From contig JAFEDO010000164.1 of NCBI GenBank assembly GCA_018241565.1, positions 1 to 12,620 of the forward strand: a stretch of DNA of 12,620 nucleotides, in the 5' to 3' direction. This stretch comes from Pseudomonadota bacterium (GTDB lineage Bacteria; Pseudomonadota; Gammaproteobacteria; JAFEDO01). How positions within the stretch are numbered: the stretch's first letter is position 1; the number at the start of each line of letters is the position of its first letter. Positions 2,758-5,009 of this stretch are shown one piece after another. Under the pieces are notes generated by a model. It was not told the origin of the DNA, made no database searches, and was given only the letters and a program-made list of their open reading frames with translations. The position numbers and the translations under genes are program-made.

Positions 2758-2782
2758 TCACATTTCTTAAATGTGATTCACA
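2758..2782. promoter_or_regulatory. palindromic operator-like site: TCACATTT-ctt-AAATGTGA (8-bp arms, 3-nt spacer) overlapping a second mini-palindrome TGTGA-t-TCACA
   Basis: Perfect inverted repeat read directly. It lies in the 330-bp divergent intergenic region between the PagL-like gene (-) and the flotillin-like gene (+). The TGTGA/TCACA half-sites are CRP/FNR-family-like. Confidence 0.4.
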
Positions 2783-2908
2783 ATAAATCGAGCTGTACTT
2801 TATTTTGAATTGAAAATCATTTTTATGGTTTGGTATATATTGTGACTCTATGAAAAATAAAGCATAGTTTGTTTGTTTCAATTTAACGTCAATTCAAGGA
2901 GAGAATTT

Positions 2909-4822
2909 ATGGATCCAAAATTAAATGATAGTAGTAAGAACATTGCTAAAGAAGATGTAAAGAAACACTCTCACCACCATGCAGACCAGCCAGTCCTCAG
3001 ACCTGAAGAAGAAAATGATCCAACTTTAGTACCGTCTGATCAAACTATTTATGAAGCTTTAGAGAGCAGAGGATTGCTTAAAACGGGACATCATGTCGCT
3101 CTTGGTCATAGGATTTCAGATGGCCATTTAGGTATGATGAGAGATGGTGAAAAATATTTTTTTATGGCGCCGGGTTATCATGTCTTATCAGCGCGCCAGC
3201 ATTTCATTGATAGCGTGTCTATAACAGAACCACTCATCAATCTGCGCGACAAACACGATGAAAATGGTATTTCATTAGTGACGATTGTTACAGTTCCTCA
3301 AGGTAGCCTTGGTTTAAGTCATAAGAGTGGTATTACGCGAATATTGCAACCTGGTGTGCATATCTTACAAACCCCACATCATTATGAAGGGACTAAAAGT
3401 GCTATAGAGCGCTACATTAAATTAGGTACTTACCATCGTATTCTTGTTTCAGCCAACGAGGTTGCTATGGCGTTTGATGGTAAGAATACCATGATAATAG
3501 GGCATGAGCAGGTCTATCGTGTTTCGGATGAATTGGGCACTGATGGAAAGCACAAACTGGTGGATGTGACGAGTGAGTACAAAAGAGGTGGTATTTTCGA
3601 AATTATTAACAATACCTTTTCATTTAATGAACAAACTGGATTTAAATCACTGCAAGTACTTGAGCATGAAATTAAAGATTTAGAGTTTACGACCACCGAC
3701 TCATCTTATTCGGGTACGGTGAAAGCTATTGTTAGATATAGAATTGTTGATCCATACGATGCCTTTGTAACAGTAAACGATGTTCACACAGATGTACTCA
3801 GACAAGCAAAAGCAACTTTGGGTGACATACTCAGACGGTTAACAGTTGATCAAGTGTCTCTAGTTCCACCCAATCAAGATCATGGTAAAGGTTCTCCATT
3901 TTCACAAGATCCGACGGATGGTTTGCGTGAGCAGAATCAGAGTTATGCGCATTGGGTAGCAACAGAATTTACAAAAGAACTTGAAAGTGTGGTGAAAAAA
4001 TGGGGCGTTGGTGATATCAACGTACGAATTGCAAAACTTGAACCCAACGACAAAACAAAGGCAAATTTAGAGTCTCGTGCAAAAGCGCGAATGGAAACTG
4101 CGACGAACGCTTCTTTGGTACAAACACAAACAGCGACGGCGGTAGCTGCAGCTGAACGAGAAAAGCAAGTTCAAGTGGTAAAAGCGCAAGCGGAAGCAGA
4201 ATCAACTGCAAAAAAAGCAGAGGGTGATGCAAGGGTTGCTTCTATTAAAGCACAAGCGGAAGCAGAATCGACTGCAAAAAAAGCAGAAGGTGAAGCAAGA
4301 GTTTCCAGTATTAAAGCAAAAGCCAATGCGGACACCGCAGTGACAAAAGCAAAAGCTGATGCAGATGTTTCTGTTATTGAGGCGGAAGCGGCAGCAAAAA
4401 TTACTCTGACGAAAGCAGAAGCTGATTCACAAGCCGTATTGTTAAAAGCTAAATCTGAAGCTGAAGCTATTAAGCTAAAAGCGCAAGCAGAAAATGAGGG
4501 AGCATTGTTGCGTGCCAACACTGAAAATCAAACGATGATGTTTCGCGCACAGTTTTATCAGAGCATGAAACTATCACCTGAACATATCACCGTGCTTGAA
4601 GATAGCCGTCTCCGTGTAGAACTTGCGAGAAATTTAAATGCGGTGGGTACAACCGTTGTTCCAGTGGATTATGGTTTAAGTGGTAACCCTGGTCTAGCTC
4701 AGCTGGCATCTCAATATCGGTTTTTCCAAAATATCACTCCGGGCTCAGGAGGAGCGGAGAAGGGTCATCACCCTCATAAAGAAGACCCATCTACAAGTAA
4801 TTTGTTAACTAATAATAAGTAA
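2909..4822 (+). CDS. flotillin-like SPFH (band 7) domain protein with C-terminal Ala/Glu-rich coiled-coil repeats, 637 aa from the chosen start
   Basis: Start moved to ATG 2909 (MDPKLND..), which has SD AGGAG 7 nt upstream; the track's 2873 start has no SD. The SPFH-like core runs about 3270-3860 (..VTIVTVPQGSLGL..RILQPGVHILQTP.. / ..VKAIVRYRIVDPYDAFVTVNDVHTDVLRQAKATLGDILRRLTVDQV..). Downstream is flotillin-type AEAEA-rich helical repeats. The N-terminal ~120 aa is hydrophilic and His-rich (KKHSHHHADQP), with no TM helix or signal peptide. Stop TAA 4820-4822 is followed by a strong terminator. Confidence 0.85.
   Translation: MDPKLNDSSKNIAKEDVKKHSHHHADQPVLRPEEENDPTLVPSDQTIYEALESRGLLKTGHHVALGHRISDGHLGMMRDGEKYFFMAPGYHVLSARQHFIDSVSITEPLINLRDKHDENGISLVTIVTVPQGSLGLSHKSGITRILQPGVHILQTPHHYEGTKSAIERYIKLGTYHRILVSANEVAMAFDGKNTMIIGHEQVYRVSDELGTDGKHKLVDVTSEYKRGGIFEIINNTFSFNEQTGFKSLQVLEHEIKDLEFTTTDSSYSGTVKAIVRYRIVDPYDAFVTVNDVHTDVLRQAKATLGDILRRLTVDQVSLVPPNQDHGKGSPFSQDPTDGLREQNQSYAHWVATEFTKELESVVKKWGVGDINVRIAKLEPNDKTKANLESRAKARMETATNASLVQTQTATAVAAAEREKQVQVVKAQAEAESTAKKAEGDARVASIKAQAEAESTAKKAEGEARVSSIKAKANADTAVTKAKADADVSVIEAEAAAKITLTKAEADSQAVLLKAKSEAEAIKLKAQAENEGALLRANTENQTMMFRAQFYQSMKLSPEHITVLEDSRLRVELARNLNAVGTTVVPVDYGLSGNPGLAQLASQYRFFQNITPGSGGAEKGHHPHKEDPSTSNLLTNNK
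4181..4510 (+). repeat. in-frame tandem repeat, 5 x 66 nt (22 aa: KAQAEAESTAKKAEG[DE]ARV[AS]SI ...), first two copies near-identical at DNA level (4181-4246 / 4247-4312)
   Basis: Direct reading. Units 1-2 differ at only a few nucleotides; units 3-5 are progressively diverged (KAKANADTAVTKAKADADVSVI / EAEAAAKITLTKAEADSQAVLL / KAKSEAEAIKLKAQAENEGALL). The 22-residue period is 2 x 11, typical of amphipathic or coiled-coil helices. Confidence 0.85.
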
Positions 4823-4835
4823 GTAGCTTTTTAAG

Positions 4836-4869
4836 AACCAACTGAATGCTTCGTTCAGTTGGTTTTTTT
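4836..4869 (+). terminator. Rho-independent terminator: AACCAACTGAA-tgcttcg-TTCAGTTGGTT followed by TTTTTTT
   Basis: 11-bp perfect stem, 7-nt loop and a U-tract, 14 nt after the flotillin-like stop codon. Confidence 0.85.
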
Positions 4870-5009
4870 AATTGCAACTAGCCAATTATGTAAATACCGC
4901 AGTAGCAGATAAATTTTATGTAAGAGTCCCATGATTGATATCCACTCGATTTTATAGACTCCTTATGAGGGGCATATACGAAGGATAAAGAAATTACATC
5001 ATACTACGC

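Follow-up and report, generated by a model that had tools for sequence, protein, structure and literature searches.

An anchorless SPFH protein with vault-like beta modules in a divergent gammaproteobacterium, probably a self-assembling scaffold rather than a flotillin

The vault is the one known large soluble cage that stands on an SPFH-type shoulder, and SPFH proteins also build closed cages on membranes. Ring- or dome-forming SPFH complexes have been solved for stomatin, HflK/C, prohibitin, flotillin, erlin and QmcA. Rings and domes of SPFH proteins are likewise reported in PMC12624060. [quoted passage not shown] Prokaryotic proteins have been described in which one to five MVP-type repeats precede a Band-7 domain and a helical tail (PMC13607799; PMC12962969; PMC3762200; bioRxiv 10.1101/872010). 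Flotillins use hydrophobic stretches and acylation sites; the Dictyostelium vacuolins A, B and C (~68 kDa) are anchorless, flotillin-like proteins whose PHB/SPFH domain is central and whose C-terminal coiled coil oligomerises, and they are markers of post-lysosomal microdomains and of phagosomal ones, the latter being exploited by Mycobacterium marinum (bioRxiv 10.1101/582049).

The gene considered here lies at 2909..4822 of a 12,620-nt stretch of DNA (the window, meaning all of the DNA analysed) and encodes 637 amino acids plus the stop codon; it and all features described below are on the plus strand. Its product is identical to an NCBI MAG protein (locus JSS53_06920). The source bacterium is a divergent gammaproteobacterium, whose NagZ is at most 60% identical to anything else. 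The product is a member of a distinct, so far unnamed SPFH subfamily, and is probably either soluble or peripherally attached.

That the core has the SPFH alpha/beta fold, as the earlier note on this DNA proposed, is borne out by the fold comparison and by Pfam Band_7 (PF01145), which matches residues 239-411 at 29.4 bits, above its cut-off of 23.6 (E 1e-6), and also matches 53 of the 65 aligned relatives. In the structural model the core takes up residues 239-380 (3623..4048), with a low-confidence loop at ~320-338. This AlphaFold model was built from the 65-sequence alignment and has a mean pLDDT of 79, with values >90 across most of 40-320; it replaced a single-sequence model, which was unusable at a pLDDT of 42. 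The same note called the protein flotillin-like, and here we disagree. The Flot domain (PF15975) has no match in the query at E<=10 and only weak matches in 2 of the 65 relatives (best E 0.0023), a sequence-profile search of the PDB returned no flotillin chain, and flotillin is a poorer match than any of stomatin, HflK/C and prohibitin, so that the closest SPFH relatives lie elsewhere. TIGR hflC matches weakly (E 1e-3, far under its cut-off). Near the C-terminus, the conserved segment GTTVVPVDYGL at residues 580-590 (4646..4678) corresponds to a family segment, GnkTvvlPlD, which in the family profile aligns with the C-terminal NSTIVFPLPIDM segment of stomatin. An NfeD-family partner gene was found neither adjoining the SPFH gene nor beside its homologues P0003, P0006, P0009 and P0010.

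Ahead of the core stand three beta modules, each modelled by AlphaFold as about 6 strands in ~52 residues. Module 1 covers residues 66-118 (3104..3262; ~52 aa with a G-x-x-G-L ... P-G-x-H motif), module 2 is the best-conserved copy (residues 123-176, 3275..3436), and module 3 (residues 174-235, 3428..3613) is a degenerate copy with a lineage-specific insertion and is the counterpart of the N-terminal strands of Pfam Band_7 (profile positions 2-30) in relatives. The modules are related to one another by sequence: an HMM of module 1 recovers module 2 and vice versa (E 1e-5 to 1e-12), and module 2 is detected by the module 1 HMM in every close homologue. When iterated, the module HMM recognised modules in 161 of the 180 family sequences, with 1-9 copies in each and 620 matches altogether. 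The number of modules before the core thus varies in the family from one to nine, with two clear copies and one degenerate copy here and nine in P0026 from Phalansterium. FloT, YqiK and QmcA have no counterpart of residues 66-235.

The suggested comparison with the MVP shoulder proved apt. With whole chains compared, Foldseek aligns the model to MVP chain 7pkz_A over 582 columns (E 7.4e-7, TMq 0.26), which is the longest alignment among the significant matches (E<=1e-3) and the highest query-normalised TM-score of all. The rmsd of this whole-chain superposition is 42.6 A, and thus the likeness to MVP is one of the order of parts, not of rigid shape. Beta repeats (66-235), an SPFH-like shoulder (239-380) and a cap helix (381-483) follow one another as in MVP, with no anchor. 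At E<=10 neither Pfam Vault nor MVP_shoulder matched the query, an N-terminal fragment of it or any of five relatives with several modules, and the beta-module profile found nothing among PDB sequences, MVP chains included. The resemblance to MVP is one of architecture, without membership of the MVP family by sequence.

The lack of a membrane anchor is genuine. The whole 637-aa protein has no TM-like segment, its highest Kyte-Doolittle mean over 19 residues being 1.04, in a beta strand; no signal peptide was found in it, and no hydrophobic stretches or acylation sites of the flotillin kind were seen. The start codon is correct as well: a Shine-Dalgarno sequence, AAGGAGAG (2896..2903, read from the sequence), precedes the ATG by 6 nt, and an in-frame stop 17 codons 5' of this ATG closes the frame, so that the longest possible addition, from a TTG at 2873, would be 12 non-hydrophobic residues. 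Close homologues (P0003-P0011) all do without a TM segment, and seven independent ones from different samples share the same start. Among 120 full-length proteins of the wider family, 88 are free of any TM-like segment ahead of their first module. Two sister proteins, P0023 and P0025, do carry a TM helix, exactly at the junction of the conserved N-terminal helix with beta module 1. By sequence, the closest clade is anchorless by descent.

The earlier note had some 120 hydrophilic residues, a His-rich extension, preceding the core. As disorder this holds for residues 1-35 (2909..3013; pLDDT <50, no conservation in the alignments) and no further: residues 36-58 (3014..3082) are a conserved motif, PSDQTIYEALESRGLL, with a short helix, which the TM helix directly follows in P0023 and P0025, and the beta modules at 66-235 have pLDDT >90. 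The HSHHH cluster is present at residues 20-24, within the disordered tail, but it has no conservation, and we do not regard the extension as a functional unit. There are 16 His in the first 180 residues, among which H67, H91, H157 and H176 occupy family-conserved module positions (the PGxH motif and similar). The C-terminal tail (residues 604-637, 4718..4819) is likewise mostly disordered, polar and unconserved, with a second His cluster, GHHPH, at 619-623 and, despite the disorder, a short helical turn at 606-608 by DSSP.

After the core comes a long continuous helix (residues 381-483, 4049..4357), the equivalent of SPFH CC1 or of the vault cap helix, and a second helix (489-552, 4373..4564) in the same hendecad register, which in the monomer model folds back onto the first, a hairpin that may be an artefact of monomer prediction. 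The register, K-A-x-A-E-A-x-h-x-h-h, begins at residue 403 and runs to 556. The 22-residue repeats noticed earlier are therefore real, although there are not five of them: we count 14 hendecads, or 7 x 22 aa, and the autocorrelation of the protein peaks at lags 11, 22, 33, 44 and 55. At the DNA level TRF reports a 66-bp period at 4181-4323 (2.2 copies, 87% matches, score 216). The first two units had been described as almost identical and recently duplicated, both of which are overstated, because their DNA identity is 57/66 (86%), with 5 synonymous and 2 non-synonymous codon changes, and their longest exact common run is 17 nt. A tandem duplication that lengthened the coiled coil in this lineage did nevertheless take place: the nearest relative, P0004, lacks exactly residues 425-490 (66 aa, three 22-aa units of 66 bp each, 4181..4378), and these residues are, by sequence comparison, a lineage-specific tandem expansion. 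No close strain-level relatives turned up in the metagenome and viral contigs scanned, and a single-protein scan of genome contigs gave only EA-repeat matches (Firmicutes, Bacteroidota and similar groups).

Relatives came to light by an exhaustive phmmer search; a word-indexed search gave one distant relative only, because EA-rich words saturate its candidate list. The closest, at 29-45% identity, are on low-GC bacterial contigs and in Satyrvirus. Farther members occur in Amoebozoa (Phalansterium, Soliformovum), dinoflagellates, the metamonad Carpediemonas, fungi, MMETSP transcripts and Rickettsiella, a member of the Legionellales. Many members of the family are thus from eukaryotes or giant viruses, which goes with the eukaryotic resemblance remarked upon earlier. 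A rough NJ tree nests the virus in an otherwise bacterial query clade, whose sister group is the bacterial proteins with a TM helix.

We believe, with moderate confidence, that the protein is a self-assembling, homo-oligomeric, anchorless SPFH dome or cage scaffold rather than a flotillin. Its vault-like build and its place in an unnamed family of protists, giant viruses and bacteria are better read in this way. From N- to C-terminus the protein consists of a variable tail, the short conserved helix, the beta modules, the SPFH core, the hendecad helix and second helix, the C-terminal strand and a disordered tail, and so includes elements of the ring- and dome-forming SPFH complexes: the core, long helices and a C-terminal segment that aligns with stomatin. 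By extrapolation from the other families of the superfamily, we propose that many copies would pack laterally via an SPFH ring and parallel Ala-rich helices, and that the C-terminal strands would seal the apex into a closed homo-oligomeric dome. The beta modules would act as wall extensions that fix the height of the dome. Since the first module stands beside the membrane in the TM-bearing relatives, the open rim of the anchorless dome would be docked peripherally to a membrane or partner, or else remain free like that of a half-vault. The three-unit insertion would add about 66 residues to the helical wall, or some 10 nm by simple arithmetic from an assumed rise of 0.15 nm per helical residue. 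As to where such a cage would act, both the bacterial cytoplasm and a host cell are conceivable.

The second of these places leads to another explanation, which we consider rather unlikely: that the protein is a host-directed effector or mimic, delivered into a protist by type IV or similar secretion and acting on or against host SPFH or vacuolin-type scaffolds at phagosomal or endosomal membranes. The cage mechanism could hold for such a role too, the site of action being the only difference. Several observations are consistent with it. The wider family has eukaryotic members (Amoebozoa, dinoflagellates, Carpediemonas, fungi and MMETSP transcripts); giant viruses of protists carry it as well, as sequence shows for Satyrvirus and fold for Harvfovirus and Bodo saltans virus; and one member is found in Rickettsiella, an intracellular bacterium. 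The anchorless Dictyostelium vacuolins, too, mark phagosomal microdomains that M. marinum exploits (bioRxiv 10.1101/582049), and the family includes amoebozoan members. The protein itself has neither signal peptide nor anchor, and both of its termini are disordered and polar.

The gene neighbourhood can be read in the same direction. The genes next to the SPFH gene encode PagL and a WD40 protein of 1832 aa that also has a faint LRR-type match; this large protein and a further WD40 protein, the products of the two genes downstream of the SPFH gene in the window, are eukaryote-like repeat proteins. Homologues are in unrelated neighbourhoods, on low-GC contigs (35-43% GC); a tblastn search of the homologues' loci with the neighbouring proteins from the window matched nothing, and hence the neighbourhood is not conserved. 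On the other hand, GC and GC3 of the SPFH gene are like those of the neighbouring genes, and in the rough NJ tree the query clade does not fall among the eukaryotes but is bacterial, next to the bacterial proteins with a TM helix, which leaves a recent acquisition from a host unsupported. A look through the literature on SPFH effectors in Legionella-like bacteria brought nothing pertinent, a Brucella paper mentioning an SPFH protein in a proteomics table only.

The gene is probably a stand-alone transcription unit, to judge from its own intrinsic terminator at 4833..4872, only 11 nt past the stop codon: a 16-bp stem, 11 pairs of which are Watson-Crick (core arms AACCAACUGAA and UUCAGUUGGUU), with a 3-nt loop and then a U run. 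The terminator was spotted by eye, having been missed by a consensus terminator scan, and was confirmed by folding (-20.5 kcal/mol, z = -6.2, 0 of 200 shuffles as stable). In the 329-bp AT-rich intergenic region 5' of the gene there is a perfect 8-bp inverted repeat, TCACATTT-N3-AAATGTGA (2758..2776), a possible operator, and a promoter-like site (2777-2806) begins directly after it. Rfam and tRNA scans across the window found nothing. A defence-system or phage origin was rejected, PADLOC and PHROGs being without match.

The scaffold reading can also be pressed much further. The protein would then be a three-module "mini-vault" of an unrecognised SPFH shell family parallel to MVP, in which wall height is set by the number of modules (1-9) and by helix length; the family would be horizontally exchanged among protists, giant viruses and intracellular bacteria, and its anchorless bacterial and viral forms would assemble within host cells as cages, free or docked on membranes, that sequester or rearrange membrane microdomains or cargo of the host. 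To this extended version, taken as a whole, we give little credence.

Very unlikely, in our judgement, is a protein of the membrane surface, whose 22-mers would lie flat on the bilayer like the class-A helices of apolipoprotein or LEA proteins and whose His clusters would bind metal. The 11/22-residue periodicity is real, and both tails do have His clusters. However, the 22-mers have low hydrophobic moments, of 0.05-0.20 each, at a mean hydrophobicity near 0, and the helical region has 26% Ala and only 20% large hydrophobics, with no proline punctuation (residues 403-555 contain no Pro). Ala falls on hendecad positions 2, 4 and 6 and hydrophobic residues on 8, 10 and 11, which makes for several packing faces, not one amphipathic face; the earlier assignment to helices of the apolipoprotein or LEA type is not borne out. 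The register, moreover, extends into the stretch that is common to the homologues and SPFH coiled coils, and the His clusters are in low-confidence regions and conserved in no homologue.

Close to refuted and extremely improbable is an ordinary FloT/YqiK flotillin or stomatin-NfeD scaffold whose anchor was missed through a wrong start, a frameshift or an assembly error. In its favour, flotillins likewise have an EA-rich coiled coil, hflC matches weakly and small errors are conceivable in a MAG contig, but the closed frame and good Shine-Dalgarno sequence, the seven homologues with the same start and no TM segment, the missing Flot domain and NfeD neighbour, and modules unmatched in FloT, YqiK and QmcA all argue against it.

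A family with variable vault-like modules, often anchorless and found in protists, giant viruses and a handful of low-GC bacteria, would span the gap between membrane-bound SPFH domes and free vault shells. Its small bacterial members should, we expect, be simpler to express and image, and the three-unit, 66-residue insertion relative to P0004 offers a natural test of whether helix length sets cage size. Were the protein delivered to a host, it would represent a new class of scaffold-mimicking effector.

How, then, does the protein compare with the known systems? From flotillin-1/2 and FloT/YqiK it differs in that the SPFH core is central, not N-terminal, beta modules are present and a Flot domain is absent. 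Stomatins (Pyrococcus PH1511/PH stomatin, the human stomatin 16-mer) have an N-terminal hairpin or TM segment, a short coiled coil and, in prokaryotes, an NfeD partner, whereas here there is no anchor and no NfeD neighbour, but three beta modules and ~170 residues of hendecad helix. The vacuolins resemble it by their published domain descriptions, which makes them a lead, and no protein named vacuolin is among the cluster members. Among giant viruses, Satyrvirus P0005 (AYV85671.1) counts as a full-length homologue by phmmer (E 2.5e-51), with 36% identity across the matched stretches and 29-30% in full-length alignments, and it shares the helix motif, modules, core and C-terminus and likewise has no TM segment; Harvfovirus A0A3G5A5B7 and Bodo saltans virus A0A2H4UTE5 match by fold (E 1e-20 and 2e-18). 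The giant-virus proteins are about 150 residues shorter, without the expanded 22-mers and the His-rich tails. The prokaryotic proteins of MVP repeats, SPFH shoulder and tail, compared by their published descriptions, are alike in their compact architecture, but the published sets are archaeal or from gliding bacteria (Myxococcales, Cytophagales, Oscillatoriales), and the present family comes from protists, giant viruses and gammaproteobacteria. MVP itself has more than the three modules found here, and its cap helix is not EA-rich and hendecad-based as this one is; what the two proteins have in common is tandem beta repeats of ~50-55 aa, an SPFH-type shoulder, a long cap helix and freedom from a membrane anchor.

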